Below, one piece after another: positions 10,482-36,775 of a stretch of 64,000 nucleotides of DNA. Numbering within the stretch: the stretch's first letter is position 1; the number at the start of each line of letters is the position of its first letter. The stretch comes from Thermoplasmata archaeon (GTDB taxonomy: Archaea; Thermoplasmatota; Thermoplasmata; Lutacidiplasmatales; UBA184). The notes under the pieces are model-generated. The model did not search any database. It had not been told where the DNA came from and saw only the letters and a program-made list of their open reading frames with translations. The DNA is taken from NCBI GenBank assembly GCA_035945215.1, contig DASZAJ010000007.1, positions 7,264 to 71,263 on the forward strand, in the 5' to 3' direction. A program made the position numbers and the translations under genes.

Positions 10482-10549
10482 GGCGCACCGACTCCGGGGA
10501 CGATGCCCCGCAGAAAAGCGTATTGGAAGCTCGGGGGCAGCGTTTCGGT

Positions 10550-10810: not shown

Positions 10811-11022
10811 CCGGTGCCGTTCGAAGGCCGACGCCAGCTCCCGGGCGGCTCGGTCGAGCTCATCGGCCGGGATGGGCTCCAGGTGAACGAGGTCGTCCGG
10901 CAGCCGGCGCCAGGTGGCGAGGAGTCGGCGGATCCGCTCGATCTCCTCGGGCGCCTCGCGCCGGAGGACCTGAGCGCCGTGAGCTCCGGGTGGTGCCCGG
11001 TCGGGGCGCACCGTGGGGGTGG

Positions 11023-11439
11023 TCACGGATCGAATGCCGGCCGCGCCGGGGTCCGATGGGATCGCAGAGCGCCCCACCCTGCCGTCAGGGTCCCCAAGAT
11101 CAGGTAGACAACAGCGAGCGTGGCGGACGCACCGGGAAGATAGAGCAGGGATCGGTTCGCGGCGAAGAGCACGAAACCCGCGAGGATCATTGAGGCGGGT
11201 ACCAACCACATCCCGATCGCGAAGTAGGCGATGGCTCCCCCGACGATGAACGTCACGGCCAGCAAGAACGCGAGGTCCAACGCCTCGGATCGGTGGCCCT
11301 CGGCCAGGATCAGCAATCCCCCGGCGACGATCGCCGCCGCTCCGACGATCAGCGGGAGGGCGACCGACCGATCGTACAGCACGATCGCCGTCGCCCGATC
11401 ATCCTCCCCACCCGGCGGTGGACCGATCGATTCGCTCAT
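11023..11439 (-). CDS. small membrane protein (4 predicted TM helices)
   Basis: 138 aa with hydrophobic helices LPLIVGAAAIVAGGLLIL, LAFLLAVTFIVGGAIAYFAIGMWLV, ILAGFVLFAA and TLAVVYLILGTLTAGW. Confidence 0.55.
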   Translation of the reverse strand: MSESIGPPPGGEDDRATAIVLYDRSVALPLIVGAAAIVAGGLLILAEGHRSEALDLAFLLAVTFIVGGAIAYFAIGMWLVPASMILAGFVLFAANRSLLYLPGASATLAVVYLILGTLTAGWGALRSHRTPARPAFDP

Positions 11440-11471
11440 TCGGACCGGACCGCACCGTCGGACGATTCTTT

Positions 11472-12296
11472 ATGCTACTCGGGGTTCGCCGCGACGGTAG
11501 GAAAGAGATGCGAGAGCTCCTGGCCCACGTCCAGTTCCGCGGCATCATACGGGAGCGGTCCGTGGAGCCGTTCCTCGCCCTTCTGCGGACCCTCCGGGAA
11601 AGGCGTCGGGTCCGGGGGGTTCTCCTCGACATCTCGAGCGGGGGCGGGGGCGACATTCCGTCGACCGACCTGCACCTGGCGATCAAGCGACTGGACGCGG
11701 TGAAGCCCGTCGTCGCGAGCATCGGCTCGATCGGGGCCTCCGGCGCCTATATGGCGGCCCTGGGCGCCCGGAAGCTGTTTGCCTATCCGGACTCGGCCGT
11801 CGGATCGATCGGTGTCGTGGTCCCACACGTCGCCGTCCAGAAGCTCCTCGACAAGCTCGGCATCCAAGTGGACCTGCTCCACGAGGGCCGCCACAAGGAT
11901 GCCTATCAGGGGCTTCGACCGCTCTCCGAGGAGGAGCGGGCGAAACTGCAGGCGGTGGCCCACGATTCATACGAGTCGTTCGTGGCGATGGTCGCGCGGG
12001 AGCGACATCGGCCGTTGGACGAGATCCGCGCGCTGGCGACCGGGGAGTTTTGGAGTGGCACGCGGGCACTCGAGCTCGGCCTGATCGACGCCCTCGGCGA
12101 TCGCGAAACCGCCCTCGAGGAACTCGCCCGTATGACCTCGGTCCCCGCTCGGAAGACCCTCCGAGTGGCTCCGCCGCGACCGTTCCTCGAGCGCTTCTTC
12201 CAAAGCGGCCTGTCGCTTGCGCCCGGGCTGGTCGTTGGGCTCCGGGACGCCATCGAGGATTCGATACTCGAGCTGAGCGGGCCGGGGCGCCTGTAG
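11472..12296 (+). CDS. sppA: signal peptide peptidase SppA (S49 family)
   Basis: Features: GVLLDISSGGGGDIPSTDL, VVASIGSIGASGAYMAALGARKLFAYPDSAVGSIGVV and a Ser/Lys dyad region. The start is either ATG 11472 or ATG 11508. Confidence 0.8.
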   Translation: MLLGVRRDGRKEMRELLAHVQFRGIIRERSVEPFLALLRTLRERRRVRGVLLDISSGGGGDIPSTDLHLAIKRLDAVKPVVASIGSIGASGAYMAALGARKLFAYPDSAVGSIGVVVPHVAVQKLLDKLGIQVDLLHEGRHKDAYQGLRPLSEEERAKLQAVAHDSYESFVAMVARERHRPLDEIRALATGEFWSGTRALELGLIDALGDRETALEELARMTSVPARKTLRVAPPRPFLERFFQSGLSLAPGLVVGLRDAIEDSILELSGPGRL

Positions 12297-12310
12297 CGCC
12301 CGTCCGCATC

Positions 12311-12319
12311 GATAAATAG
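12311..12319 (+). promoter_or_regulatory. TATA-like box (gataaatag) about 29 nt upstream of the Sec61-beta ATG
   Basis: It is an AT-rich octamer in an otherwise GC-rich spacer. The spacing fits a leaderless archaeal transcript. Confidence 0.4.
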
Positions 12320-12343
12320 CCCGGCGGGGCTGCTGGATCGGCG

Positions 12344-12505
12344 ATGCCCGACAGCAGCAAACGCGGATTCTCCTCCGCGGCCGGACTCATCCAGTATTAC
12401 GACATGGAAGAGTCTCGGGCGCTCAAGATCGACCCGTACATCGTGATCATCCTCGGCCTCGGGGCTGCCGTGGTCGTAGAGATCCTCAGCTGGAAGGTCG
12501 TCTGA
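12344..12505 (+). CDS. preprotein translocase subunit Sec61-beta (SecG-type), unannotated small ORF
   Basis: Hand translation gives MPDSSKRGFSSAAGLIQYYDMEESRALKIDPYIVIILGLGAAVVVEILSWKVV (53 aa). It has the conserved GLIRYY-like motif and a single C-terminal TM. It falls below the 60-aa cutoff of the ORF track. Confidence 0.75.
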   Translation: MPDSSKRGFSSAAGLIQYYDMEESRALKIDPYIVIILGLGAAVVVEILSWKVV

Positions 12506-12509
12506 TCCC

Positions 12510-12920
12510 TCACTCGCCGAGAACCTTCACGATCACCCGCTTCCGGCGCTGGCCGTCGAATTCGGCGTAGAAGACCTGCTCCCACGGCCCGAGGTCCAGC
12601 CGGCCCTGGGTCACCGGGAGGACGACTTGGTGGCCCAGCAGGAGGTTCTTCAGGTGGGCGTCGCCATTCGATTCGCCCGTGCGGTGGTGGGCGTAGTCCA
12701 TTTCCGGGACCAAACGTGCGGCCCAGCGCTCGATGTCCTCGAGGAGACCCGCCTCGTTATCGTTCACGTAGACGGCCGCGGTGATGTGCATCGCCGAGAC
12801 CAGGCAGAGACCCTCCCGGATGCCACTTCTTTCGACGATGTCGGCGACGGCATTCGTGAGGTTGACGAACCCCCGGTGGCCGGGGGTGTGCATCCACAGG
12901 TACTCGGTCGCCGCCTTCAT
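12510..12920 (-). CDS. YjbQ/UPF0047 family (secondary thiamine-phosphate synthase-like) protein
   Basis: 136 aa. The regions [36 protein letters not shown] and [15 protein letters not shown] match the YjbQ family. Confidence 0.8.
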
Positions 12921-12932
12921 CGCGGTCGGCGG

Positions 12933-13898
12933 TCAGGCGATCCCCTCGATCGGGGTGGGACCCAGGCCCGGCAGATACCGGTCCTCGTCCGGCCGGCCGA
13001 GGAGCAGCACTTTCGACTCGGGGGACTCATCGAGCACCGTGAGGCCGGTCTGGCGGGCGAGCGCCCGCGCGAATCCGGCGATCTCGGCATGCTCGGGCAC
13101 GTGGGCCCGACCCAGCCGCTGGCGGGACTTACCCATGTACACGTATCCTTTCGGCTCGATGAAGTTCGGGCGGGCCCGCTCATCCAGCGCGGCATACTGG
13201 TCGACCCAACCAAGGTTCCAGCCCCGCACCAAGGTGTGGCGAACGACCCGACGCGTTCGCAACCCGCGAACGATCTCCAGGGATTCGAGCAGCCGCTCCC
13301 AAGCGTCCGGTTGGGCCGGCATGGTCAATCGCCGAAAGACCTCGGGATTCGGGGCAGTTACCGACACGTAGAGTTGGGTCGGCAGAGGGTCCATATGCCG
13401 GAGGGCGTCCGGATTCGTCCCGTTGGTCACCAGGAAGGTGGTGATCCCCCGCGCCTCGCAAAGGCTGAGGAATCGGTTCATCTTCGGGTACAACGTGGGT
13501 TCCCCCGTCAGGGAGATCGCCACGTGGCGGGGGGACTGGGACGCCTCCCACCGATCGCGCGGGATCGTCGGATCGCCTTTGAAGCCGGAGAGGATCCTCT
13601 GTTGCGCCTCGATCGACCGGTCCAGAAGGGTCTCCGGATCGTCGAATTCCGGCATCAATTCGTCGTTCTCCCAGCCCTGGTTCCGCCAGCAGAACCGGCA
13701 ATGCAAATTGCACGAGTCGATCGCCGGCGACATCTGGAGGCACCGATGGCTTTCGATCCCGTAGAAGCGTCCCTTGTAGCAGTCCCGACCTTTCGTCAAC
13801 GACTGTCGGGTCCAATAGCATAACTTGACGGCGCTGTGCCGACCGACCAGCTGATAGCCTTGGCCGACAAGTTCCCCGGCCAGGTCCTGGTCCCCCAT
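12933..13898 (-). CDS. taw1: tRNA 4-demethylwyosine synthase (Taw1/TYW1), radical SAM
   Basis: The N-terminus reads HSAVKLCYWTRQSL. The radical-SAM Cys motif is CNLHCRFCWR. 321 aa is the archaeal Taw1 length. Confidence 0.85.
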   Translation of the reverse strand: MGDQDLAGELVGQGYQLVGRHSAVKLCYWTRQSLTKGRDCYKGRFYGIESHRCLQMSPAIDSCNLHCRFCWRNQGWENDELMPEFDDPETLLDRSIEAQQRILSGFKGDPTIPRDRWEASQSPRHVAISLTGEPTLYPKMNRFLSLCEARGITTFLVTNGTNPDALRHMDPLPTQLYVSVTAPNPEVFRRLTMPAQPDAWERLLESLEIVRGLRTRRVVRHTLVRGWNLGWVDQYAALDERARPNFIEPKGYVYMGKSRQRLGRAHVPEHAEIAGFARALARQTGLTVLDESPESKVLLLGRPDEDRYLPGLGPTPIEGIA

Positions 13899-14090
13899 GC
13901 CCAGCGGGACCTCTATCGACCGGCCCTTATCCTCCTTTGGACCCCGCCCAATCGGGACCCCGACCCGCCATCCCCTCGACGGCGACCGATGCGGGCCGGA
14001 CTTCGACGGCGACGCGATAGCCGAGCGCGCGGGCCCGGCTCCGGGGGGCGGCCATCGTTATCCCCGTCCGTTCTAGTCGACCGATCCGGC

Positions 14091-14414
14091 ATGGTCGAGC
14101 AACTGCGTCCGGAGGATGTCGCTCGTCGACTCTCCGAGCATCCCGAGGGGATCGTTCTGCTCGACGTGCGCGAGGATTGGGAGAGGACCACGGCGCGGAT
14201 CGAACCCTCCCTGCACATTCCCATGCAACAGGTCCCCGATCGCTTGGGCGAACTGCCCAAGCGGGGGCTGATCGTGGTGTATTGCCATTCCGGCGTCCGT
14301 TCGGCGATGGTGGCGGCGTACCTCGCTGGCCACGGGTTCCGCTCCGTGGCCAACCTCTCGGGGGGAATCGACGCCTGGTCCACGGAGCTGGACGCGACCA
14401 TCCCGCGATACTAG
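14091..14414 (+). CDS. rhodanese-domain sulfurtransferase (single domain)
   Basis: The catalytic loop is VVYCHSGVRSAMVAAYL. There is an ATG at 14091. The upstream in-frame extension is Pro/Arg-rich and unlikely to be coding. Confidence 0.75.
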   Translation: MVEQLRPEDVARRLSEHPEGIVLLDVREDWERTTARIEPSLHIPMQQVPDRLGELPKRGLIVVYCHSGVRSAMVAAYLAGHGFRSVANLSGGIDAWSTELDATIPRY

Positions 14415-14424
14415 GGGCGGCCTC

Positions 14425-15177
14425 GTGTCCGACTCGCTCGAATCCCTCCGTCGAGAAGTGATCGGTTGTGGGCGATGCCCCCGACTCGTCGCATACCGTC
14501 AGCGTGTGGCGATCGAAAAGAAGCGCGAGTTCCGGGGGCAGGAGTACTGGGGGCGGCCGGTCCCCGGGTTCGGGGATCCGCAGGCCGCGCTCGTCCTGGT
14601 CGGCCTCGCCCCGGCCGCGCATGGCTCGAACCGGACCGGCCGCGTATTCACCGGGGACCGTTCGGCCGCCTTCCTCGTGCGCGCCCTGTACGAGGCGGGA
14701 TTTTCCAATCAACCGACATCCGTGGGTCGGGGGGACGGGCTGCGCTACACGGGGGTGTACGTGACGGCGGCCGTGCGATGCGTCCCACCGGACAACCGGC
14801 CCTCGCCGGCGGAGCTCGACCACTGCCTGCCCTACCTCGAGCGCGAGCTGCGCCTGCTTCCGAACGCCCGCGCGGTGCTCGCGCTCGGGGGGTTCGCTTG
14901 GGAGGCCACCCTGAGGGCCCTGGCCGCCGTGTACGGGTCCCCCCTTCGCAAGGTGCCGTTCGCGCACGGGCTGGCCCTGCCCCTCGGGCCGGGGCGGCCG
15001 ATCGCGTGGGCGTCCTATCATCCAAGTCCCCAGAACACGAACACCGGACGGTTGACCGCCCCGATGTTGATCGGACTCCTCCGTCAGATCCGCGGTTCTT
15101 GGACCGGGGGCCCCCGGCTCGGAGGTTCCCCGCCCGCATCCCTCGGTCCCGCGAGGGCGTCGGGCCGCCAAAGGTAA
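14425..15177 (+). CDS. uracil-DNA glycosylase, family 4/5 (UdgB-like, GLAPAAHG motif)
   Basis: The N-terminus has the Fe-S Cys cluster CGRCPRL. Motif A is LVGLAPAAHG (family-5-like). HPSPQN lies near the C-terminus. Confidence 0.8.
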   Translation: MSDSLESLRREVIGCGRCPRLVAYRQRVAIEKKREFRGQEYWGRPVPGFGDPQAALVLVGLAPAAHGSNRTGRVFTGDRSAAFLVRALYEAGFSNQPTSVGRGDGLRYTGVYVTAAVRCVPPDNRPSPAELDHCLPYLERELRLLPNARAVLALGGFAWEATLRALAAVYGSPLRKVPFAHGLALPLGPGRPIAWASYHPSPQNTNTGRLTAPMLIGLLRQIRGSWTGGPRLGGSPPASLGPARASGRQR

Positions 15178-15205
15178 TCCGAGGGCCGTCACCTCCGCGG
15201 CCCGG

Positions 15206-17158
15206 ATGGCCGACTTCGAGCTCGTCGAGCGGGACGGCCTCGCGCGCATCGGTCGACTGCCCACCCCGCATGGGGTCGTCGAGACCCCGGCGCTGCTGCC
15301 GGTGGTCCACCCGGATCCGGCGCGCCAGCCGATCCCCCCAAAGGAGATCCGGACCCGGTTCGGGTTGGGTGCGGTGATCACCAGTGCGTACATCACCTGG
15401 CGGACGCCCCCGCTGCGGGAGGTCGCCGAATCTCGCGGCATTCACGGACTGCTCGATTTCGATGGGCCGGTGATGACCGACTCGGGGGCTTTCCAACAAC
15501 ACGCCTACGGGCACATCGAGGTGTCCGACGAGGCGATCTTTTCGTTCGAACGGCGGATCGGGGCGGACATCGCCACCGTCCTCGACATCTTCACCGAACC
15601 CGACGCGCGCGCCGACGAAGCGCTGCGGGCCCTGGAGGAAACGAGCGCCCGCGCCAAGCGGGCCCGGGAGCTCCACAAGGGGCTGCTGGCCGTCCCAGTC
15701 CAGGGGGGCCTCCACGCAACGCTCCGGTACCGCTCGGCTTGTGAGGCGTCGGAGATCGGGGACGTGCTGGCGGTCGGAGGGGTGGTGCCCCTCATGGAGC
15801 GCTACCGGTTCGCCGACCTGGCGAGGGTTCTGATCGCGGCGCGGCCCGGCTTGGCGCCGGGGGGCGTGGTGCACCTCTTCGGGAGCGGGCACCCGATGGC
15901 CTTTGCCTTCGCCGCTCTCTTCGGGGTCGATCTGTTCGACTCGTCCTCGTACCTAAAGTTCGCCCGGCGGGGGGCGCTCATGTTCCCGGACGGGACGGTC
16001 GCGCTCGAGGAAATCCGGGAACCGATCTGCCGATGCGCCCTGTGTGAGCGGCTCCCGCTCCACGAGGTCGCCCGCCTGGATCGCCCCGAACAACTGGTTC
16101 GGATCGCGGAACACAATCTGCTCCAGTGTGCCCAAGAGCTCAGCCAAGTACGCCAGGCGATCCGGGACGGCACGCTCTGGGAGCTCGCCGAGCGACGGGC
16201 CGCGGGCCACCCGGCGTTGCAAGCCGGCATGCGGACGGTGGTTCGGGGGGTACGGACGTTCCTCCCCACGGAACCCGAGAGTCGCCGCGCGTTCCGGGTG
16301 GTCGGGGCCACGAGCGGCCTTCGACCCTCCGTCATCCGATTCCTCGCCCAGGTCGCCCGTTGGAAGGCCGGCCGCGGCCCGTACCGGGACCATCCCAGGG
16401 TCCCGCTCACCCCGGCCGGGATCGGCCGGACACCCACCCAGACCCGTTCGGGGACGGTCCTCCACTGGGCGGTGAACACGCCGATCGGCGCGGTCCCCCT
16501 CGAGCTGACGGAGATCTATCCGATCGGCTGCTACCTGGGACTCGAGGAATTCGAAAGCGCGGCGGATCAAGCCGCCCCCGCCACGCCGGAGGAGGCGCCG
16601 GACGTCGATCCGGGCCGGGAGTACATCGCCGAGTGGACCCACCGGCAGATCCGGGGCCTCCTGGAGTGGGTCCACGGTTCCGAAGGGGCGGACGCCCTCC
16701 AGCCGGACGGGCTTGTCGGGGAGCGGTCGCGGCGGACCGGCCGGCTGCGCCGTGTGCTGCGCGACGGCGAGCGGCTCTTCACCCTAGGAAACGATGGGAT
16801 CCCCCGGCCGACGTGGAAGGGGGCCGAGCTCGTCCATCGAACCCGCCCGTTTCCCGCGCAGCGGATCATCGCCGACGCCGACGCCGTGCCATTTGTCGAG
16901 GCGGGGCGCAGTCTGTTCTCCCGGTTCGTTCGCGGGGGCGACTCTTCCCTGGTTCCCGGCGCGAGCGCGCTCGTCGTCGACGGAGCCGACCGCCTCCTCG
17001 CGGTGGGGCGCCTCGTCCTGGCGCCGCCCGAGATGGGTCGGGTCCCCCGGGCCGTCGCGGTCCGGATCGTCGCGCATCGGCACCGTCCCGACGGAGAAGC
17101 GGACCCGGAACCCGCCAGGTCGGGCGACCCCGGCTCGTCGGAGGCCGGTGAGCTTTAA
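15206..17158 (+). CDS. tgtA: archaeosine tRNA-guanine transglycosylase (ArcTGT) with C-terminal PUA region
   Basis: The N-terminus matches a TGT TIM barrel (GRLPTPHGVVETPALLPVV...VMTDSGAFQ). The Zn site is CRCALCE. The 650-aa length includes the extra C-terminal domains. Confidence 0.85.
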   Translation: MADFELVERDGLARIGRLPTPHGVVETPALLPVVHPDPARQPIPPKEIRTRFGLGAVITSAYITWRTPPLREVAESRGIHGLLDFDGPVMTDSGAFQQHAYGHIEVSDEAIFSFERRIGADIATVLDIFTEPDARADEALRALEETSARAKRARELHKGLLAVPVQGGLHATLRYRSACEASEIGDVLAVGGVVPLMERYRFADLARVLIAARPGLAPGGVVHLFGSGHPMAFAFAALFGVDLFDSSSYLKFARRGALMFPDGTVALEEIREPICRCALCERLPLHEVARLDRPEQLVRIAEHNLLQCAQELSQVRQAIRDGTLWELAERRAAGHPALQAGMRTVVRGVRTFLPTEPESRRAFRVVGATSGLRPSVIRFLAQVARWKAGRGPYRDHPRVPLTPAGIGRTPTQTRSGTVLHWAVNTPIGAVPLELTEIYPIGCYLGLEEFESAADQAAPATPEEAPDVDPGREYIAEWTHRQIRGLLEWVHGSEGADALQPDGLVGERSRRTGRLRRVLRDGERLFTLGNDGIPRPTWKGAELVHRTRPFPAQRIIADADAVPFVEAGRSLFSRFVRGGDSSLVPGASALVVDGADRLLAVGRLVLAPPEMGRVPRAVAVRIVAHRHRPDGEADPEPARSGDPGSSEAGEL

Positions 17159-17532: not shown

Positions 17533-18534
17533 ATGGTCGTCCTCGGGGTCGAGTCGACCGCCCACACGGCCTCGGTCGGGATCGTCGGCGAACACGCCGA
17601 GGTGCTGGGCCTGAGCTCCGACATGTACCGTCCCCCGGCCGGCGGGATCCACCCCCGGGAGGCCGCCAACCACCACGTCGAATGGCTGCCCGGCCTGGTG
17701 GCGAAGGCGCTCGCCGAGGCGAACGTATCCCCCCGCGAGGTCGAGGCCGTCGCGTTCGCCCAAGGACCCGGACTCGGCCCATGCCTGCGCGCGGGCGCGA
17801 CCGTCGCCCGGATGCTCGCCCTCGCCTGGGACCGACCGCTCGTCGCGGTGAACCACTGCGTCGCCCACGTTGAGATCGCCCGGGCCCTGAGCGGCCTCGA
17901 CGAGGCGCTCTTGTTGTACGCGAGCGGCGGGAACACCCAGGTCATCGCCTACGGCGCCGGCCGATACCGCGTGCTCGGCGAGACGCTCGACGTGGGGATC
18001 GGCAACTTCCTCGACAAGCTTTGGATCGGCCTCGGCGGGACGTTCCCGGGAGGCCCGGCGATCGAGGCCGCGGCCCGGGGACGCTCGCACCTCCTTCGAC
18101 TTCCATACAGCGTCCACGGGATGGACGTCGCGTTCTCGGGCATCCTCACGGCCGCCCTCGAGCTCGCCCGAAAGGGGGCCAACCGGGCCGACCTCGCCTA
18201 CTCCGTGGAAGCCACCACGTACGCGATGCTGACCGAGGTCACCGAGCGGGCCCTCGCGCATCTCGGCCGCACCGACGTGGTGCTGGGCGGCGGGGTCGCC
18301 TGCAACGGGCGGCTCCAGGCGATGGTGCGCGCGATGGCCGAGGCCCGGGGGGGGACCAGCTTCGCCCCGCCGAAGCGCCTGTGCGTGGACAACGGGGCGA
18401 TGATCGCGTGGACCGGCCTTCTCGCCCTGCGGGCCGGCCGGACCACCGAGATCGAGCGATCGACCGTGCGCCCGCGCCAGCGGACGGACCTGGTGGACGT
18501 CCCCTGGCGATCGCTACCCGAGCAGCCCTCGTAG
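17533..18534 (+). CDS. kae1: tRNA N6-adenosine threonylcarbamoyltransferase Kae1
   Basis: The N-terminus is MVVLGVESTAHTASVGIV (ASKHA fold). The HxxxH-type metal site is NHCVAHVEIA. Kae1/TsaD-type regions follow through the C-terminus. No Bud32 fusion is present. Confidence 0.9.
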   Translation: MVVLGVESTAHTASVGIVGEHAEVLGLSSDMYRPPAGGIHPREAANHHVEWLPGLVAKALAEANVSPREVEAVAFAQGPGLGPCLRAGATVARMLALAWDRPLVAVNHCVAHVEIARALSGLDEALLLYASGGNTQVIAYGAGRYRVLGETLDVGIGNFLDKLWIGLGGTFPGGPAIEAAARGRSHLLRLPYSVHGMDVAFSGILTAALELARKGANRADLAYSVEATTYAMLTEVTERALAHLGRTDVVLGGGVACNGRLQAMVRAMAEARGGTSFAPPKRLCVDNGAMIAWTGLLALRAGRTTEIERSTVRPRQRTDLVDVPWRSLPEQPS

Positions 18535-19494
18535 CGCGAGCCAGGGGCTCGAGAAGTGAGCGACCTTGGCCGACTCCTGAAGGAACGGGGTCAGGAAACC
18601 ATAGTGCGGGAGAGGCCCGAAGAACAGGAGGCCGTCGGCGTAGGGATTCGCCAGACCCGTGGCATCGAGGGATGGGATCGAGGCCGGGCCAAAGGAGGTG
18701 GTCGCCGTGCTCGAGAAGGTGATCGCGATGGTGTGGCCGGTCCCGTAGAGCTTCGCGAGGCAGGAGGGGTACGGCGGGACCGTGTTGTCGAGCGTGCTGA
18801 TCTCGAGCAGGGGTCCCTTCGAGGAGAGCTGGTTGTCCACCCAGAGCCGGACAACGTCGGTGGCGTTCGTCCGAAAGCCGAGGATATCGTCCGGTTGGTA
18901 GATGATCGGTTGGCTGGGATGGGCCGCGGAGACGAACACATTCGAGTACGATCCGGACCAGACGTTGAAGAACGTCGAGAGGTTGTACTGGTAGTTCCAA
19001 TCGGATAGGATATTGATCGTGTTCGGGGTGAACCCGAACGCCGCAGGCTCGGTACGGATGGGGAGATCGCATTCGTAGCCTCCGGGGAAGCTGTTGTTCC
19101 GGCCGATCGCGGGGGGGAGGTTGACGACGGTGCCGTTGATCGTGATCGTCAAAAGCGGCGCCGTCCCGTACACCTCGGTGGCGCTCGGGCACCAGGTCCC
19201 CCCGAAATTCGTTGTGCCCGCGGGCGGGTACGCGGGCACGCCGCTCGAGTTGGGGACTGGGACAAGCGTGATGCATGGAGTGGGCAGATTCGAAACCACG
19301 AGATAGATGGCGACCACGGCGATCACCCCCACGGGGACTCCGACCACGAGCCCGCGACGCCACGGATTCCGGCTCGAGCTTTCTCGGCCCGCCTTCCGGC
19401 GGACGCGGTCGCGCCGCCGCTTGAGCCGCCGGTCCTCGGGGGTGAGCTCCTCGGGCCGGGCCTCCTCGACCTCGCGCCCGCGGCGTTTCGACAC
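18514..19494 (-). CDS. type II membrane glycoprotein (charged cytoplasmic N-terminus, signal-anchor, N-glycan-sequon-rich ectodomain)
   Basis: The N-terminus is KRRGREVEEARPEEL...RRKAGRE, followed by the TM helix LVVGVPVGVIAVVAIYLVV. The ectodomain has sequons NSS, NGT, NLS, NAT and NTV. Confidence 0.55.
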   Translation of the reverse strand: MSKRRGREVEEARPEELTPEDRRLKRRRDRVRRKAGRESSSRNPWRRGLVVGVPVGVIAVVAIYLVVSNLPTPCITLVPVPNSSGVPAYPPAGTTNFGGTWCPSATEVYGTAPLLTITINGTVVNLPPAIGRNNSFPGGYECDLPIRTEPAAFGFTPNTINILSDWNYQYNLSTFFNVWSGSYSNVFVSAAHPSQPIIYQPDDILGFRTNATDVVRLWVDNQLSSKGPLLEISTLDNTVPPYPSCLAKLYGTGHTIAITFSSTATTSFGPASIPSLDATGLANPYADGLLFFGPLPHYGFLTPFLQESAKVAHFSSPWLALRGLLG

Positions 19495-19972: not shown

Positions 19973-20113
19973 TCAATCGTACCTGGGATCGGCGTCCATC
20001 CGCGTCGCCGGGTGGCCGCACTTCGGGCACTCGACGACCCTCCAATCCGGCGGGACCGGGACCAGGGCACCGCAGGCCTCGCAGCGGACCTCGGAGGCCT
20101 CCGGCTCGGGCAT
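19973..20113 (-). CDS. small zinc-ribbon protein
   Basis: MPEPEASEVRCEACGALVPVPPDWRVVECPKCGHPATRMDADPRYD has two CxxC pairs. It lies divergently upstream of GGR. The longer 89-aa form carries a Pro/Arg-rich N-terminus of doubtful coding value. Confidence 0.45.
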   Translation of the reverse strand: MPEPEASEVRCEACGALVPVPPDWRVVECPKCGHPATRMDADPRYD

Positions 20114-20318
20114 CGTCTCCTCGGGGATGGACAGGCCCGGCTTCGTAAGACGTTGCCCGGGAGGGGTCTTCCCCACCGAAACGGGGGCGAACCTTCCGGG
20201 GCGGTACCGAGGCGTACGAGGCGAAGCGCCCGTCGGGGGCAAGTACCCGCAGGGTCGACCTTCCCGTCGGGCGCCGTCGGCCCACTCCTAATGAGGTGGT
20301 CACGCCGTCCCCACGCCG

Positions 20319-21569
20319 GTGCGAGAGGTCGAGGCGCTCATCGTCGGTGCGGGCCCGGCCGGCAGCACCGTGGCCCGCCGGCTCGCCGAACGGGCCCACC
20401 ACGTCCTCGTCCTCGAGGAGCATGACCGGATCGGACAGCCGGTCCAGTGCGCAGGACTCGTATCCCAGCGCGTCCTCGACCTGGCCGGCCCGGACGGCTA
20501 CCGGATCGGGCCGGTCCTCGGCGCCACGGTCTTCGGACCGGGGCGTCCCTCGGTCAAGTTCCGGGCCGAAGGGTCGCGGGCGTTCGTCATCGATCGCGCC
20601 GGCCTCGACCGACACCTCGCCGACCGGGCGGCTCGCGCCGGCGCCGAATTCGAGGTCGGTTCGAAGTTCGACCGTCTCGTGGGTTTCGAGGGGGACGCCC
20701 CGGTGGCGGAGATCGTGCGTTCGGACGGGGTCCGAAGCCGCGTCCGAGCGAAGGTGATCATCGGCGCCGATGGGGTCACCAGCGCCGTGGCCCGTGCCTT
20801 CCGATTGCGTCGGCCGGTCGAGATCCTCCCCGCCTTCGAGGCCGAATTCCCTTCCGAAGGAGGGGACCCGCAGGAGGTCGAGGTATACCTGGGACGCACG
20901 ATCGCGCCGGGCCTGTTCGGCTGGTCGATCCCCGATCAGTCGGGCGGGGCGCGGGTCGGCGTGGCGGCGAACGCCGATGGGACGAGCGCCCGAATCTACT
21001 TTGAGCGGCTCGTGGAGCGGATCGGAAAGGTCCGAGGGCGCCGATTGCGTTCGCCGACTTCGTTCATCGTCTCCGGGATCCCCATCGGGAGGCTGCCTCG
21101 AACCTCCGCCCGGGGGGTCATGCTCGTCGGCGACGCGGCGGCGCAGGTCAAGCCACTCTCTGGGGGGGGCATCTACACGGGGATGCGCTGCGCCGAGATC
21201 GCGGCGGAGGTCGCCCACAGCGCCCTCGGCGCGCAGGACCTTGGCGCGTCCTCGCTCGCCCGGTACGATGTCCGATGGCGCGAAGAGCTCGGTGGCGAAT
21301 TCGACCGGGCCATGTACCTGCGGCGCCTGTTCGTTCGTCTGACCGACCGCGAGCTCGACGCGATCGTCGGCTCCCTCGACCGGGCGGAGCTTCGGGGTAC
21401 GATCGTGGCCTTCGGGGATATCGACTTCCCGAGCGGCGTCGCCCGGGCCCTGCTCGTTCAGTCCCCGTCCTTGATGCGGCTTTTCCCGAAGGCCTTGGGG
21501 GCGCTCGTCGGATCGCCGGGCGTCCACTTGCGCGACCTCGATCCCGGGCCCCGCCGATACGAAACGTAG
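20319..21569 (+). CDS. geranylgeranyl reductase (digeranylgeranylglycerophospholipid reductase family, FAD-dependent)
   Basis: A GTG start gives MREVEALIVGAGPAGSTVARRLAERAHHVLVLE (Rossmann GxGxxG). LVGDAAAQVKPLSGGGIYTGMRC matches archaeal GGR. Confidence 0.85.
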   Translation: MREVEALIVGAGPAGSTVARRLAERAHHVLVLEEHDRIGQPVQCAGLVSQRVLDLAGPDGYRIGPVLGATVFGPGRPSVKFRAEGSRAFVIDRAGLDRHLADRAARAGAEFEVGSKFDRLVGFEGDAPVAEIVRSDGVRSRVRAKVIIGADGVTSAVARAFRLRRPVEILPAFEAEFPSEGGDPQEVEVYLGRTIAPGLFGWSIPDQSGGARVGVAANADGTSARIYFERLVERIGKVRGRRLRSPTSFIVSGIPIGRLPRTSARGVMLVGDAAAQVKPLSGGGIYTGMRCAEIAAEVAHSALGAQDLGASSLARYDVRWREELGGEFDRAMYLRRLFVRLTDRELDAIVGSLDRAELRGTIVAFGDIDFPSGVARALLVQSPSLMRLFPKALGALVGSPGVHLRDLDPGPRRYET

Positions 21570-22297
21570 CCGCCGGCCGCGGCCAGGGCCAGGCTCGCGC
21601 CTAGGACCCCGTATAACACCGTCGGGGTCCCGTTCGATCGGATCAGGATCGCGGTCTCCGGGAGTACTCCCGAGACCCCGAGCCGGCTCGCGTTGACGGT
21701 CGGCGTACCGTTGGCGAGTTCGGTCCCGTTCGCCCAGACGGCCGCGGAGAAGTAGCCCCGGGAGGCCAGGTGGAACGACTGGGCGCCTTCCTGGAAGGTG
21801 AGCTCGGCCCGGATGGCGAACGTCCCGGACGGCGCCGACGCGGGGATGGAGAAGGGAAGCGATAGGTTGCCCGGCGCCCCGAACGATCCCGACGCGGCGA
21901 GGCGAGCGATCGGTACCACGACCGCGGATCCGTTCGCCCCCAAACCCGAGAACACCGGCGAACCCCCGGCCGGAAGGCCCGAGGTCGAACCGCCGGGGTA
22001 GGCCGAGAAGGCGTACAACTCGAAGGTGAGTGAGATCGACGTGATCGAGCCGGCCAGGGTGTCGGTCAAGAGGAAGGATAACGCCCCGCTGCCTCCCGGG
22101 GCCAGCGCCGGCGCGGCGAGGCCGGAGAGCAATCCGTCCGAGATCCCGACGGGCAGGACCGGCGGGGCGGCCGCGCCCGCCGTGGCGGGCATGGCGAGGC
22201 CGACCAAGAGTCCGACCAGGAGCAGTACAATGAACGATATGCGGGGTCGCCTACCCACCCCACGCCTCCGGCTCCTGTCGAGCCTCGGCCATCGCAA
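21458..22297 (-). CDS. secreted/membrane-anchored glycoprotein (signal peptide, C-terminal TM)
   Basis: The signal peptide is RRPRISFIVLLLVGLLVGLAMPATAGAAAPP. There are sequons NGS, NLS, NGT and NAS. The C-terminal TM helix is VLYGVLGASLALAAAGGYVSY, followed by a basic tail. The 3' end overlaps the GGR 3' end convergently. Confidence 0.55.
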   Translation of the reverse strand: MRWPRLDRSRRRGVGRRPRISFIVLLLVGLLVGLAMPATAGAAAPPVLPVGISDGLLSGLAAPALAPGGSGALSFLLTDTLAGSITSISLTFELYAFSAYPGGSTSGLPAGGSPVFSGLGANGSAVVVPIARLAASGSFGAPGNLSLPFSIPASAPSGTFAIRAELTFQEGAQSFHLASRGYFSAAVWANGTELANGTPTVNASRLGVSGVLPETAILIRSNGTPTVLYGVLGASLALAAAGGYVSYRRGPGSRSRKWTPGDPTSAPKAFGKSRIKDGD

Positions 22298-23162
22298 CGA
22301 GCCGCCGGATCCGGGCGATCGCCTGGGGGTGGCCGGCCGACCCCCGGGTCCCCAGGAACCCGACGGCCCAGAACCGACGGGGCACCGGCGCCCCGGCGAT
22401 CGCCTTGTAGAGCGCCCGGGCCAGCGCGAGGGGGAGGCCGGTCGCCCGGACCGCGTCGTCGTCGGCTCGGAACTCCTCGCGGTCCGTCAACCGAGCGGCG
22501 ATGAACGCCATGAGCGGGTCCCAGCGCATCATCCTCGACAGGGTCCGAAGGTAGGTCAGATACCGGCCGTCGAGGCCCCGCAGATGGCCTACCTCATGCG
22601 CCACCACCGCGGCGACCTCGGGTTCCGAAAGCAATTCGACCAATCCTCCGGAGAGGATGATCACCTCCAACCGGTGCGGATGCCATCGTCCCCCCGCGAA
22701 GGAGAGCAGGGTGAACGAGAACGCCTCCCGCTCCAGGGACCGGGATTGAAGGAGCTGGACCGGAAAGGCGGGCCAAGCGAGCCCCCGGGGCCACGGCATC
22801 TCCGAAGGGTTGAGCAGACGGAGCGTTCCCCGGCCGACCGCCTGGTTCAGCAGGAAGGCCACCAGCAGGATCGTGAACGCCCCGAGCGCTCCCTCGGCCC
22901 ACATCGATGGATCCGAGAGGATCGTGGCCGCGAGCAGGCTTGGGGGGGTGTGGGAGATCCGAACGAGGCCCATCCATCCGCCGTTTTCGAGGACCCAAAC
23001 GAGAAATGTCGTGGCGAGCAGCGACCATAGCGCGAGGAACGCGGACGCCAAGCGAAGGACCGTCGTGGGCGCGGATTTCCGGAACGCGTAGACGAGGCCG
23101 GCGCCCGAGGCGACCCAGACGACGACCGGGGCGTACAGTACGAGGGCGAGCAGGGCCAACAC
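22251..23162 (-). CDS. M56/M48-family membrane metalloprotease (BlaR1-like peptidase domain, no sensor domain)
   Basis: It has 4 N-terminal TM helices. The HExxH motif is VVAHEVGHLRG, and the downstream Glu is in EEFRADDDAV. This topology and motif spacing match BlaR1/HtpX-type peptidases. Confidence 0.7.
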   Translation of the reverse strand: MLALLALVLYAPVVVWVASGAGLVYAFRKSAPTTVLRLASAFLALWSLLATTFLVWVLENGGWMGLVRISHTPPSLLAATILSDPSMWAEGALGAFTILLVAFLLNQAVGRGTLRLLNPSEMPWPRGLAWPAFPVQLLQSRSLEREAFSFTLLSFAGGRWHPHRLEVIILSGGLVELLSEPEVAAVVAHEVGHLRGLDGRYLTYLRTLSRMMRWDPLMAFIAARLTDREEFRADDDAVRATGLPLALARALYKAIAGAPVPRRFWAVGFLGTRGSAGHPQAIARIRRLVAMAEARQEPEAWGG

Positions 23163-23174
23163 GACGGGTCCCCG

Positions 23175-23531
23175 CTACAACCGGAGCCGACGGCGGAGCT
23201 CGCGCTCCTCCGACGGGTCAAGCTTCGCGAGTTCCTCGTTCAGGTGCACCACGCCGGCCGGACCGAATAGCGACACCACGCCCTTGAGCAGATTCACCAG
23301 GTACTTATGCTCAAAGTCGACGGACTGGTAGACGTATCGTTCCCCGCCGCGGCACGGTTCCCGGTCGCGCCGAACCAGGCCCTTCTCGTGGAGCCGCCCG
23401 AGGACGGTGGCGATGGTGGTGTACGCCAAGTCTTCCCCGCCACGCGCGAGCGCATCGCGCACCCTCCGCGCCGGCGCCTTCTTCAACCGACGGAGGGCGA
23501 GCAGCACCTCCGCCTCGAGGGAACCGATCAA
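23175..23531 (-). CDS. BlaI/MecI/CopY-family transcriptional repressor (winged helix)
   Basis: 118 aa: LEAEVLLALRRLKKAPARRVRDAL...YTTIATVLGRLHEKGLVRRDREPCRGGERYVYQSV, then a C-terminal dimerisation helix. It sits immediately upstream of the M56 protease. Confidence 0.7.
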   Translation of the reverse strand: MIGSLEAEVLLALRRLKKAPARRVRDALARGGEDLAYTTIATVLGRLHEKGLVRRDREPCRGGERYVYQSVDFEHKYLVNLLKGVVSLFGPAGVVHLNEELAKLDPSEERELRRRLRL

Positions 23532-23685
23532 CGGGCACCCATGCCAGCGATTCGATGGGGACGGGGGTTCTTGAACCTGCGGCCTGAACCGTTCGAACGA
23601 GACGGACCGATCGTCACCGGCCCTCGGCGGTTCCCCCCGGTCGCGAAGGGAAGCCCATTAAACGGCCCCCCGATTCCCTCGGCGT

Positions 23686-27671: not shown

Positions 27672-28708
27672 ACGGATTCGGCTTTCAGGAGCACGGAGGG
27701 CTCGAAGGGACGGGCTTCGTCTCCATCCCGGAGCCGGTCCCCGGGCCGGGCGAGATCCGCGTTCGGATCCGTGCGGCCGCGTTCAACCACCTCGATCAGT
27801 TCACCCTTCAAGGAATTCCCGGCGTGTCGATCGAACGGCCCCACGTTCTGGGGTCCGATGGGGCCGGGGTGATCGATCGCCTCGGGCCCGGGCTCGACGG
27901 CCCCCCCGTGGGGACCGCCGTCCTGCTGAACCCCGGGATCTGGGACGGGACGTGCGAGGCTTGCCGAAGGGGCCAGGAGTCGTACTGCCGCGCCTATCGG
28001 ATCCTCGGGGAGCATACGCAAGGCACTGCCACTGAGCTCGTGGTCGTGCCCGCCCGCAACGTCCACCCCATCCCGGCGGGACTTTCCTTCGAACAGGCGG
28101 CCTCGGTGCCCTTGGTCTTCCAGACGGCTTGGCGGGCGCTTTGTACCGTGGGCCAGCTTTCGGCCGGTGAGACCTGCGCGATCATCGGGGCGGGGGGAGG
28201 GGTGGCGACCGCGGCGGTTCAGATCGCCCAGCGTTCCGGGGCCCGGGTGGTCGTGGCGGCCCGTTCGGATCGCCATGCCGAACGGGTTCGGGCCCTCGGC
28301 GCGGAAGAACTGCTCGTCTTCAGCCCCGAAGTTCCTCTCGACCGCCTCCTTTGGCAGTGGAGCGGCAAGCGAGGGGTCGACGTGATCTTCGACTCGGTCG
28401 GCCAGCCCACCGTCCCGCGATCGGTTCAAGCCCTTGCCCGGGGGGGCCGGCTGGTGGTCATCGGGGCAACCGCCGGCCCCAAGGTCGAGATCGATCTTCG
28501 CACCCTGTTCTGGCGCCAAGCCTCCATCCGGGGCAGCACGATGGCCGATCCCCGGGAGTTCGCTCAGGTGCTCGAGCAGATCGCCCTGGGCTCGCTCCAT
28601 CCCGTCATCGATTCGACGTACCCGTTCGAGCGCGCCCGGGAGGCGTTCGAGCGGTCCTGCGCGCCGGGCCTGTTCGGAAAGGTCGTGGTCAGCGCCCCGG
28701 TCCCGTGA
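27668..28708 (+). CDS. zinc-type alcohol dehydrogenase / quinone oxidoreductase (MDR superfamily); start uncertain (no ATG)
   Basis: Motifs: GPGEIRVRIRAAAFNHLD, the GSDGAGV catalytic region, GETCAIIGAGGGVATAAVQIA (Rossmann) and C-x2-C-x2-C (CEACRRGQESYC). It follows the cysS stop directly. CTG 27668 is only a guess for the start. Confidence 0.7.
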   Translation: MNGFGFQEHGGLEGTGFVSIPEPVPGPGEIRVRIRAAAFNHLDQFTLQGIPGVSIERPHVLGSDGAGVIDRLGPGLDGPPVGTAVLLNPGIWDGTCEACRRGQESYCRAYRILGEHTQGTATELVVVPARNVHPIPAGLSFEQAASVPLVFQTAWRALCTVGQLSAGETCAIIGAGGGVATAAVQIAQRSGARVVVAARSDRHAERVRALGAEELLVFSPEVPLDRLLWQWSGKRGVDVIFDSVGQPTVPRSVQALARGGRLVVIGATAGPKVEIDLRTLFWRQASIRGSTMADPREFAQVLEQIALGSLHPVIDSTYPFERAREAFERSCAPGLFGKVVVSAPVP

Positions 28709-28763
28709 GGGGAACTCGGCGCACCCGGAACGGTACGAACTCTCGAGATTGGCGCGGCCATCA

Positions 28764-28772
28764 TTTTTATAC
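28764..28772 (+). promoter_or_regulatory. TATA box (TTTTTATAC) about 27 nt upstream of the GTG start of the giant surface-protein gene
   Basis: It is a clear AT-rich box in a GC-rich spacer, and the spacing suits a leaderless transcript. Confidence 0.5.
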
Positions 28773-28794
28773 CGGGACCACACCATTTGCGAAC

Positions 28795-31700
28795 GTGAAC
28801 CGCTCTCATGGCAACCCTTGGGCCCCCCAAGGCGATGGGAACCGCCGCGAACGATCCCCCCATGTGTTTCTGCTCGGTCTGCTCCTCCTGATCACCGTAC
28901 TCGGGGCCCTCACGGTCCTGGGGGCGGGCCGGACCATCGCGATCGCCCCCTCCCACCTGGCCGCGCCTTCGTCCCCCGCCCATCCGACGCCCATGGCGAC
29001 GACCCAGTACGGGGGGGACCTCACCGTGCCCTCCGGGGTCAACCTGACCTTGGGACCGGCGACCGGTCGGCTGACGTACTACGAGGGGGGCAACCTCACC
29101 GTCGCCGCCGGCGGGACCCTGAATGTCCGCAATACCACGATCGTCTTCGTCGAATTCATCGGCAACGGAGGCTCCGTGGCGAGCCAGCTCTCCCACATCT
29201 ACCACCTCCTCGACGCCGGCACGATGGTCCTGACCAACTCGTCGATCACCACCCTCGTGACCCAGATCGATCCCTATCCGATCCTCACCGTGACCATCAC
29301 CGGATCGTTCCAGATGACCAACGGAGCGCTCGCCTTCCCCGGGTCGATCACCGTCAACGGGAGCTCGGCGAGCCTCTGGCTTTCCCATAGCACGGTCGGA
29401 CGCAATCCCGCGACGAGCGCCCTCGTGGGCAACGCGAGTTCGAACTCGTCCACGCCCGCCTCGAAGGCGTTCGGGGCCGACGTCGCGTACGCGCCGGTCC
29501 TCAGCGTGATCGGGGGGGGCCAGGCCACCTTCCTCGCCTCGTTGCTGAACAACTCCTTCCGAGACCCGCTGAACGGGTCGACTCTGCCCGGGGTCCCCCC
29601 GAGCACCGCCAGTCCAACGCCCGGTAACGCTGTACTGGGGGGCACCGCGCCCGCCCCGCTCGTCCTGCCGCCCCCGGGTAACTCCTCGGACGCGCTCGCG
29701 CTCGCGGCGGCCTACCCTACGGTCGCCTCCGGTAGCCTGAGCATCTCGTACAACTCCACCGCGGCTTCCACCACGTCCAACTCCCGGATCGTGATCGGCC
29801 CGAACTCCTGGACTTTCAGCCCGATCCACTTCGCGGCCTCGACCGGCACCACCAGCGTGGATGCGCCGGTCCCGGCGGCGGCGATCGCGTCGATCGACCA
29901 GGGGGGGGTCCCCGCCTTCCTCGCCGCCCTGGGATCGGGCCAGGTCGCGATCGCCTTCGGAACCGCGTCGACCCCCACCACGATCCACTCCGTGACCCTG
30001 AGCTTCGTCGCCCCGTGGAGCTTCAACCTGACCGTCTCGGGTTCGGGGAGCACCCTGACCGCCGCGGACACCACGTTCGATGAGAACTGGAACGCGACCC
30101 CGGGGCTGCCCGGCACCCTCCCCTACGTACCCTGGCATTCGAACAAAATCGTGCTCACGGGCGGCGCCCGGGCGTTCCTCGCCAACGTTTCGGTACCCCC
30201 CGCCGCGCCCGTCAACTTCGCCCACCAGTCCTTCGTCGTCCCCGACGCCACGAGCTCGGCGGCGTTCTACCGGTGGCTCAACGTTCCGGTCCGCGGCGCC
30301 CAGGGGATCATCGTCCAGGGGGCGACGGTCCAGGCCCCCTACGCTTATTCGGGCGCCACGAGCGAGAATGCGACCGTCTCCGCGCTCAACGGGCTCTCCA
30401 CGGCCGACCCGAGCCTCGCCGCCTACGTGGCGGCCTGGGACCGGGCCGCGGGCGTGGCGAACTACGGCGAGGTCGATGCCTCGGGGAACGCGAGCCTCCT
30501 GCTCGCCTCCGACCAGCTTACGAATGCCTCCTTGCCCGACGGGAACTTCCTGGGCAGCTACCACGTCGGCGTCACGGCCAACCCGGGGAGCCAGGGGATC
30601 ACCCAATGGTTCTACGCGTCGCTCCCGGCGTACCCTTCCGAGATGCAGCCGACGGGGCCGAACGCCACGGGGCCAATTCCCACGTCCTACGTGATCTTCC
30701 CGCAGTACCGCGTGTCGGTAATCGCGGGTTCCCCGACGTTCGCCATCGGCGCCACGCCCGTCACGAACGGATCGACCGCCATCGGCGAGAACCTGAGCGT
30801 GATCGAGAACGTCCAGAGCACCGGCACCGGGACCGTGTCGAGCTTCACGGCGACGCTCTTGCTCTCGGCGGCGGGCAAGCCCCCCGTGCAGATCGGCCGC
30901 CCACAGGTCTACGGTCCCCTGGCGCCCGGGGCGAGCCACCCGGTCCGCTTCGACTGGATCGTCAACGGGAGCCTTGTTGGGTACGCGACCGGCGGGGTCC
31001 TGAGCACTTTCACCGTCGTCATCAATTGGAGCCCCGGGGCCGGCGCGGCGAGCGCCGCGCAGAGTCTGACGATCTATCCCCCGTACATCGCCTTCAGCAC
31101 GACGGGCCCCTCGGGGACGCTTACGATCGGCAATAGCTACCTATTGCACGCCTTTGTGAGCTACGCCGGGAACGGCTCGGCGCAGCTCAACATCACGGCG
31201 CGTTCCTCGACGGGCGGATTCCTGCAGATCGCCAGCGGTCGGGTCATTTCGGGCGGGGAGACGAACGTCAGCGTCCTCATCGAGAGCTCCGCCGTGCCGG
31301 GGACGTATACCCTCTACGCGAGCGTCTTCCACGACGGTCGGACCGTTCACTACAACGTCACGAACGCCTTCATCATCCCGTCGACGGCGCCCCCGACCAC
31401 GACGCCCTGGTACGACCAATCGTTCCTCGGCCTTGCGCTGTGGCTGTGGCTCGTGATCGCCGCCGCCATCGCCGCGGGGATCGTCTTGTTCCTGTTCGTG
31501 TCGGTCCAGAAGGCCAAGGGCAAGGTCGTCGAGTGCGGCGAGTGCGGGGCGATGATCCCGGAGACCGCCGTCGCCTGCCCCGAGTGCGGCGCCGAGTTCG
31601 AGTCGGACCGAGTCCGCTGCAGCCGATGCGGATCGACGATCCCGGGCAACTCGGCGGTCTGCCCGGAGTGCGCCGCAACGCTGTTGGGCCGCGCCGGCGA

Positions 31701-33842: not shown

Positions 33843-33856
33843 CGGGCCCGCCCCGC

Positions 33857-35812: not shown

Positions 35813-35915
35813 GTCGACAGGGTCAGGCCGGGGCGGACGGCGATCGCCGCGGGACCGCGCCACCCGGCTATCCGGTGGCCGAACGCGAGATAAGCCGCAG
35901 CGGGTCCTGCGCCGC

Positions 35916-36767: not shown

Positions 36768-36775
36768 GCCTTCGT

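Follow-up and report, generated by a model that had tools for sequence, protein, structure and literature searches.

The 64,000-nucleotide stretch of DNA analysed here (the window; positions 7,264 to 71,263 of contig DASZAJ010000007.1 in assembly GCA_035945215.1) comes from a Thermoplasmata archaeon of the order Lutacidiplasmatales, and contains three co-directional minus-strand open reading frames (ORFs) that together fill positions 21458-23531. They encode, in this order, a BlaI-family winged-helix regulator, a membrane zinc metalloprotease with a BlaR1-like core, and a secreted protein with a membrane anchor. By analogy with the bacterial BlaI-BlaR1 systems, we lean towards the view that these genes form an autoregulated operon, and that it acts as a proteolytic switch of the BlaI/BlaR1 type in which the beta-lactam sensor is missing. 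A preliminary description of the same DNA had proposed a BlaI-like regulator, a sensor-less protease and an anchored secreted protein in an operon layout with overlapping or adjacent frames, and domains, topology and gene spacing bear this out: 12 nt lie between the stop of the regulator gene and the start of the protease gene (3-28 nt among relatives), the protease and the third gene overlap by 8 nt, and the G+C content at third codon positions (0.86-0.87, in a window of ~69% G+C) is coding-like. The identities and architectures of the three proteins, their linkage across the order, the coupling of genes two and three, and a conserved operator locked to the promoter can all be read directly from the sequences compared here.

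From these features we infer regulator binding and cleavage, the signal, the direction of regulation and the role of the third protein, as follows. A dimer of the regulator would bind GTwCGwAC-N2-GTTCGwwC just upstream of the transcription factor B recognition element (BRE) and TATA box of its own promoter, and probably also a half-site near the transcription start, such that operator occupancy would set the level of all three products. The second product would be a membrane protease with three transmembrane (TM) helices and a cytoplasmic zinc (gluzincin) domain; a membrane or extracytoplasmic cue would activate this domain, the protease would cut the regulator within its invariant C-terminal region, and the cut dimer would dissociate and leave the DNA, with a change in expression. 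Direct cleavage of BlaI by BlaR1 is established in Staphylococcus aureus (PMC9834060). The third product would be a clade-specific single-pass surface protein with an immunoglobulin (Ig)-like ectodomain; it might assist the protease as an accessory or sensor subunit, or else be an output under the same regulation. A role in envelope stress or surface remodelling, as proposed in the preliminary description, is speculation.

What the sensor-less BlaR1 homologues of bacteria detect is an open question (PMC9834060), and the locus offers a setting in which to probe the trigger of a sensor-less BlaR-type protease and the working of a bacterial-type regulator on an archaeal promoter. New here are the order-wide conservation of the operon among housekeeping genes in small genomes, the defined geometry of a candidate operator and promoter, and the clade-specific, translationally coupled surface protein. 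Lutacidiplasmatales abound in acidic soils; their genomes measure about 2 Mb, at 65-71% G+C (PMC9287336).

The regulator-protease pair

Relatives of the locus were sought by scanning one genome per species, and the best 80 of 142 were used; all are Thermoplasmata metagenome-assembled genomes (MAGs), among them 'Candidatus Lutacidiplasma silvani' and the AcS/SubAcS genomes of Lutacidiplasmatales. The third gene is present in all 80 loci, and the regulator gene lies directly upstream of the protease gene in 79, the stretch fetched for the 80th beginning 86 nt before the protease. The co-occurrence of the trio across genomes, put forward earlier as a check, is thus seen in every one of these best 80 of 142 relatives, save for one regulator gene at a locus cut by its edge. 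Identity to the window proteins across the 80 loci is highest for the regulator (61-86%), intermediate for the protease (45-66%) and lowest for the third protein (35-51%).

The regulator gene (23175-23531, minus strand, TTG start) encodes a 118-aa winged-helix protein of the BlaI/MecI/CopY family. Residues 2-116 match positions 1-113 of the 115 in the Pfam Penicillinase_R model (58 bits, cutoff 22.6; E = 1.4e-15), the closest solved structure is Mycobacterium tuberculosis BlaI (2g9w), and the N-terminal domain can be aligned to M. tuberculosis BlaI as well as to S. aureus BlaI and MecI. The orthologues (n = 79) are 118-121 aa long, with an invariant recognition-helix region (AYTTVAT-L-RL--KG) and an invariant C-terminal block, F89-G90-P91-x-G93-V94-V95-H96-L97, which the regulators of the sister clade described below retain as FGxRGVVHL. 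The sole cysteine of the window regulator, C60 (codon 23352-23354), lies in the wing within E-T-C-R-G-G-E-R; it is invariant in 20 aligned window-clade orthologues, and at least 90% of the full set of 79 retain it. The gene adjoins cysteine and transsulfuration genes, and the residue might conceivably have a thiol or redox function.

The protease gene (22251-23162, minus strand) encodes a 303-aa membrane zinc metalloprotease with a BlaR1-like (M56/M48) core. Its AlphaFold model (predicted local distance difference test score, pLDDT, 80) has three long N-terminal helices followed by a beta-sheet, the HExxH helix and four further helices; helices 2 and 3 are joined by a 25-residue loop (residues 60-84) with two short helices. 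The zinc-binding and catalytic motif H189-E190-V-G-H193 (22584-22598, minus strand) is invariant in 30 homologues, as are E229/E230 and D234. No hydrophobic segment was found after residue 110, and a TM hairpin separating HExxH from the Glu ligand is accordingly lacking; since basic residues are conserved behind helices 1 and 3, the positive-inside rule predicts a cytoplasmic catalytic domain. The protein terminates at residue 303, past the last protease-domain helix and with no further domain or TM segment, so that a penicillin-binding sensor domain is absent.

The family assignment of the protease bears on how the whole operon is understood. Peptidase_M48 is the sole Pfam protease model above threshold (36.9 bits, cutoff 20.3), while M56 reaches 17.9 bits, below its cutoff of 31, and the top PDB sequence match is a fragment of HtpX. 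With M48 and HtpX as its best Pfam and NCBIfam matches, the protein could be an HtpX-like housekeeping protease that degrades misfolded membrane proteins, with the BlaI-like repressor setting its expression and never being cleaved, and with the third protein as a co-expressed surface protein or a substrate; the membership of the operon in the core gene set of ~2 Mb genomes, in a housekeeping neighbourhood, is in keeping with this, and the locus would then be an ordinary one of plain repressor and housekeeping protease. We consider this improbable, because the core is BlaR1-like and the pairing with a BlaI-family gene is strict. The HtpX equivalog models reach at most 28 bits against cutoffs of 245-422 (the best one 28 against 422). 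HtpX and Ste24 (M48) are likewise membrane gluzincins with HExxH; unlike the window protease, they have TM segments that part HExxH from the third zinc ligand, and their genes have no BlaI-family partner; such a pairing is the hallmark of BlaR-type switches and is found here in two clades with different contexts.

The closer likeness is to BlaR1. The protease profile aligns to residues 177-247 of S. aureus BlaR1 without a gap over 71 residues, from before HExxH to the E-x-E-A-D (ExxAD) motif and with BlaR1-like spacing, whereas the alignment to Ste24 requires an insertion of ~50 residues at that place; in a fold search BlaR1 (8exq) came top with a probability of 0.99, level with ZMPSTE24. The gapless alignment and the fold match together indicate a BlaR1-like core despite the sub-threshold M56 score, and the M56 label given earlier therefore holds for the core and its alignment to BlaR1 and fails by Pfam, where M48 passes in its stead. 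Many close homologues carry a precomputed M56 match, and a 100%-identical protein from a Thermoplasmata archaeon MAG is named 'M56 family metallopeptidase' by NCBI. Between the last two helices lies a loop modelled with low confidence (residues 257-276; 22335-22394, minus strand; pLDDT <50 at residues 263-273), with a conserved G-F-L-G ~40 residues past the Glu ligand. L270 and G271 are invariant, and FLG is kept at the same place in the consensus of the sister-clade proteases. The autocleavage loop of BlaR1 spans residues 271-289, with the scissile bond at Ser283-Phe284 (PMC9834060), and by its analogous position the loop at 257-276 is a candidate autoinhibitory or autocleavage loop, an assignment that we infer only.

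Beyond the window clade, an exhaustive search with the protease profile returned 25 cluster representatives at E <=1e-30, 230 at 1e-10 and 8,891 at 1e-3, and the nearest out-group proteases are ~300-aa proteins of Thermoplasmata and Thermoplasmatota that NCBI names M56. In a sister clade (loci L081-L089) a 118-aa BlaI-family gene lies directly upstream of a protease gene of ~295 codons, with a 4-nt overlap, and the flanks differ from those of the window clade, with a Tat-signal protein upstream and an AbrB-like gene downstream. Adjacent regulator-protease pairs recur among more distant relatives. This adjacency within different flanks, recurring further out, argues that the pair is a conserved functional unit. 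No homologue of the third gene was found in the sister-clade loci, which marks that gene as a clade-specific addition outside the core switch; its inclusion in the switch by the preliminary description thus stands as linkage within the window clade and does not extend to the sister clade, which keeps the pair without it.

The sister clade has peculiarities of its own. In its proteases H59, H61, H71, C83 and C89, in the loop between TM helices 2 and 3, are invariant (L081-L089), and at one locus (L086, 3449-4458) two cupredoxin-like genes (C..C-G-x-x-H..M) are divergent from the regulator gene. Together, the His/Cys loop and the cupredoxin-like genes hint at metal sensing in that clade.

The regulator promoter and its candidate operator

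The regulator gene is divergent from a block of CBS, CGL and cysS genes across a 154-nt spacer (23532-23685), an arrangement that the sequence confirms as first described. A palindromic operator with TACA-N-TGTA-like dyads had been suggested for this spacer. No TACAnnTGTA, with up to one mismatch, is present in it; the region instead holds a different conserved element, a GTwCGwAC-N2-GTTCGTTC dyad or repeat, of which the window copy is degenerate. Neither circumstance that the preliminary description named as refuting it, lack of a conserved operator dyad and lack of co-occurrence of the three genes elsewhere, therefore applies. The classical TACAnnTGTA operator, rejected as a candidate, has two matches in the 64 kb, about the level of chance and both outside the spacer. 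A repeat search in the window spacer alone gave short pairs only, which are not judgeable without relatives, and scans for sigma-70 promoters and intrinsic terminators were uninformative, the host being an archaeon.

The conserved motif emerged from a comparison of 79 regions upstream of the regulator gene, and can be spelled out as G-T-(A/T)-C-G-(T/A)-A-C-(T/C)-(C/G)-G-T-T-C-G-T-T-C. Its position is fixed relative to an A/T-rich box that is conserved in position in 75 of the 79 regions and probably serves the regulator promoter as its archaeal TATA box: in 55 of the 79 sequences the operator 22-mer ends exactly 13 nt before this box, which reads TTAAGG in most relatives and lies 37-46 nt upstream of the regulator start codon. 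The window copy of the box is TTCAAGAA (23568-23575, minus strand), ~43 nt before the start. At the orthologous position of the motif lies the candidate operator O1, GGTCCGTCTCGTTCGAAC (23591-23608, minus strand), with a weak left half and a palindrome, CGTTCGAACG, at 23590-23599.

When a position weight matrix (PWM) of the operator was run over both strands of 860 kb of related loci, 71 sites scored at least 17 bits, and 68 of these are at the regulator promoter. Fifty-one of the promoter sites were found on the sense strand; the remaining 17 are the same site read on the opposite strand, so that in many species the element is a true dyad, TACGAAC-NN-GTTCGTA. Between the TATA box and the start codon, 22 of 75 promoters have a further element, a hexamer resembling a half-site (3.5 +/- 1.8 expected), which in 16 of the 22 is at TATA +18 or +19; its window copy O2, TCGAAT (23550-23555, minus strand), is at TATA +19. 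In one sub-lineage the operator is 7 nt from the TATA box, a position that would overlap the BRE. Regulator promoters of the sister clade (L081-L092, 130 nt upstream) carry dyads of another kind, GTACTAC-N5/6-TAGTAC, sometimes in two copies and, in L092, as the perfect palindrome GCTACTAC-CATT-GTAGTAGC.

The spacer was initially described as a control region shared by the regulator gene and the divergent block. The spacer itself exists, and the divergent gene, which encodes a PALP (pyridoxal phosphate-dependent) enzyme with CBS domains, has a TATA-like box of its own, ATTAAA (23657-23662, plus strand), 24 nt before its GTG start at 23686. The operator, in turn, is locked to the TATA-like box of the regulator and lies at variable distance from the CBS-domain gene, whose boxes in relatives read CCATTAAC or CCATAAAC. 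The spacer to this gene is 95-182 nt in 68 of 75 loci and up to 2.7 kb in the others, and the CBS block is displaced in some genomes that keep the trio, and in at least two it is missing from the locus as fetched. With this variable distance and displacement, the shared region amounts to synteny and not to shown co-regulation.

Beside the M48 assignment of the protease, several observations weigh against an autoregulated BlaR1-type switch. The window copy of the operator is weak, its 12.5 bits lying within the range of shuffled sequences, and its identification rests on orthology. The PWM scan of the 64-kb window gave no additional copy of the operator, its best match being the expected site, and thus no regulon beyond the operon can be claimed. 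In archaea, a regulator site upstream of the TATA box often means activation, as for TrmBL1, SurR and Ptr2, and by that comparison the place of the main operator may speak for an activator; the BRE-overlapping site of the one sub-lineage and the half-site near the start, as sequence features, point to repression. At the protein level, profile-to-PDB comparison and hhalign aligned only the DNA-binding domain of the regulator to S. aureus BlaI and MecI, its C-terminal half being unalignable (the C-terminal part of the S. aureus BlaI sequence used with hhalign may not be exact). S. aureus BlaI is cleaved at Asn101-Phe102, in its C-terminal dimerisation domain; no equivalent site could be mapped in the window regulator by these alignments, and no Asn-Phe pair is present within F89-L97. 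Lastly, the whole neighbourhood is syntenic within the window clade, with Kae1 and geranylgeranyl reductase genes largely kept on one side and the CBS-CGL-CysS block on the other. With such conserved flanks the co-occurrence seen within the clade is partly plain synteny, and for the third gene, which the sister clade lacks, it is not independent evidence.

The third gene and its product

The third gene (G279; 21458-22258, minus strand) likely starts at GTG 22258 and then encodes 266 aa; an alternative TTG start at 22297 gives 279 aa. The junction with the protease gene (22251-22269, minus strand) has the form expected for translational coupling: GTG (22256-22258) follows GGAGG (22265-22269) by 6 nt and overlaps the end of the protease gene, with its TAG stop at 22251-22253, by 8 nt. 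Independent automatic gene calls in a 94%-identical relative give genes of 303 and 266 aa with the same 8-nt overlap. Fifty-eight of 77 loci have a start codon exactly at -8, 8 nt inside the protease stop, and none of the 77 has its last possible start more than 29 nt beyond that stop. A start at or near the protease stop throughout these loci points to co-translation of the third gene with the protease and, judged from the sequences, probably to a fixed stoichiometry.

The protein has no Pfam match, and none in NCBIfam at E <=0.1. A signal-like helix lies at its N-terminus, and a single TM segment with a basic tail at its C-terminus; in its AlphaFold2 model (pLDDT 85) a beta-sandwich stands between an N-terminal helix and a long C-terminal one, and a fold search returned generic Ig-like or beta-sandwich matches only (cohesin, TRAP subunits, PapD-like domains). 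Among 38 homologues, eight match Pfam NEW3 (PF10633; best E 6.9e-7), and the window protein does not. Six N-X-S/T sequons, of which one is kept in all 38 homologues and another in 31, are the basis on which the protein is taken to be a likely glycoprotein. The membrane anchor is preceded by a conserved LN-x-(S/T)-R-L-G-V-S-G-V-L-P-E-T motif, which includes RLGVSGVLPET. The succession of LPET, TM helix and RR resembles a sorting signal and matches no curated signal model; across the 64-kb window and the 860 kb of related loci it is confined to orthologues of the third gene.

At its 3′ end the third gene overlaps the convergent gene for geranylgeranyl reductase (20319-21569, plus strand) by 112 nt (21458-21569) according to the gene calls. 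The whole cytoplasmic tail of the third protein is antisense to the last 37 reductase codons, with codon position 3 facing position 3. All related loci that were checked have an overlap of at least 103 nt, and the two genes overlap in the independent calls of the close relative too; the reductase ORF extends ~30 aa beyond the end of the Thermoplasma enzyme 3oz2. In this arrangement conservation of the tail is inseparable from that of the reductase, and the conserved cytoplasmic tail was dropped as functional evidence on account of its antisense position in 3:3 codon phase. The distal tail is missing from 11 of the 38 homologues.

These features bear on a more specific version of the switch, in which the third protein is itself the sensor: by binding, through its Ig-like ectodomain, to the outside loop at residues 60-84 of the protease, it would control the active site on the cytoplasmic side, and so take the place of the sensing His/Cys-rich metal-binding loop of the sister clade. 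This would make the locus a split BlaR1-type receptor in a wall-less archaeon, where a coupled Ig-like surface protein senses and a regulator is proteolysed at a TATA-type promoter; in BlaR1 the sensing part is a fused domain. It is in line with the 8-nt overlap and GGAGG motif kept in 58 of 77 species, with the way in which BlaR1 signals, by an outside loop to which its sensor domain is bound (PMC9834060), and with a complementary pattern between the clades, the sister clade having the H59/H61/H71/C83/C89 loop and no third gene, and the window clade the reverse. The ectodomain, however, has generic Ig-like matches only and no ligand-binding signature, and the tail is uninformative, being antisense to the reductase gene and lacking its distal part in more than a quarter of the homologues. 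We accordingly hold this version to be doubtful. Were it true, it would be the first such proteolytic transcription switch described in archaea and a new type of sensor subunit; the clades with the His/Cys outside loop and those with the extra surface protein offer a natural comparison. For the sensor-less switch that we prefer, the third protein may be either partner or output.

Related systems and genomic surroundings

In the BlaI-BlaR1 and MecI-MecR1 systems of S. aureus and Bacillus licheniformis, as here, a Penicillinase_R regulator gene adjoins the gene for a multi-pass membrane zinc protease, the core from HExxH to Glu aligns without gaps, and a dyad operator is present at the regulator's own promoter. 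The archaeal locus departs from them in that its protease lacks both an extracellular penicillin-binding domain and a TM helix beyond the protease domain, the operator differs in sequence, there is no beta-lactamase or penicillin-binding protein target, the host is an archaeon with a TATA-type promoter, and the regulator gene comes first and is followed by a third gene. Three defining features of the canonical systems are therefore missing: the sensor domain, the TACA/TGTA operator and the resistance-gene target. The M. tuberculosis BlaI (Rv1846c) system has a sensor-less BlaR1 homologue too (PMC9834060), and differs in being bacterial and in controlling a beta-lactamase and other genes. The nearest counterparts are the sister-clade pairs, with the same protease topology, a 118-aa regulator and a dyad operator at the regulator promoter; these differ in their lack of a third gene, their His/Cys-rich loop, their GTACTAC-N5/6-TAGTAC operator and their neighbours. 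We know of no translationally coupled Ig-like third gene in the M. tuberculosis system. The locus belongs among the sensor-less BlaR-like pairs, which are common and automatically annotated; bacteria are already known to have BlaR1 homologues without a sensor. Counts of the regulator family in archaeal genomes have been published (PMC8253408); a search of a paper library found no functional study of an archaeal BlaI/BlaR1-type pair, and these genes go unmentioned in the paper on the Lutacidiplasmatales genomes.

CopY and TcrY belong to the same regulator family as the window regulator and share the fold of its DNA-binding domain, and the CopY_TcrY NCBIfam equivalog matches it weakly (23 bits against a cutoff of 122). 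On this ground, and given the His/Cys-rich outside loop of the sister clade and the two cupredoxin-like genes beside one of its regulator genes, the regulator or the protease might respond to copper or zinc as CopY does. We judge this very improbable for the window clade. CopY binds metal at a Cys-rich C-terminal site and lets go in response to copper, not through proteolysis, whereas the window regulator has C60 only and no CopY-type C-terminal CxCxxxxCxC. CopY binds TACAnnTGTA (PMC7253601), which is absent from the spacer; the outside loop of the window-clade protease has no conserved His or Cys, and there are no metal-transport genes nearby. Copper sensing in the window clade is unsupported.

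The wider surroundings are those of a core genome. Upstream, the divergent block continues from the CBS-domain gene into a CGL-like gene and then the CysS gene. Taken together, 9498-17158 and 32215-39127 hold housekeeping genes that include those for replication factor C, a signal peptide peptidase (S49), a TYW1-like radical S-adenosylmethionine enzyme, uracil-DNA glycosylase, archaeosine tRNA-guanine transglycosylase, S-adenosylhomocysteine hydrolase, a fused 3-hydroxyacyl-CoA dehydrogenase/enoyl-CoA hydratase and phosphoenolpyruvate synthase. With housekeeping genes on both flanks the operon lies outside any island; a library of anti-phage defence systems gave no matches to the regulator, the protease or the third protein, and Rfam and tRNA scans yielded a single distant tRNA-Arg. 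Several other ORFs of the window were noted. A 1264-aa ORF (28351-32145, plus strand) has zinc-ribbon domains near its C-terminus as its only Pfam matches. A 326-aa protein (18514-19494, minus strand) is basic at its N-terminus and has a single membrane segment, also N-terminal; no Pfam model matches it, and its gene is kept beside Kae1 in about one third of the related loci. Between this gene and that for the reductase lies a small zinc-ribbon ORF (CxxC...CxxC; 19973-20242, minus strand), which is also called in the close relative, as a 46-aa gene.

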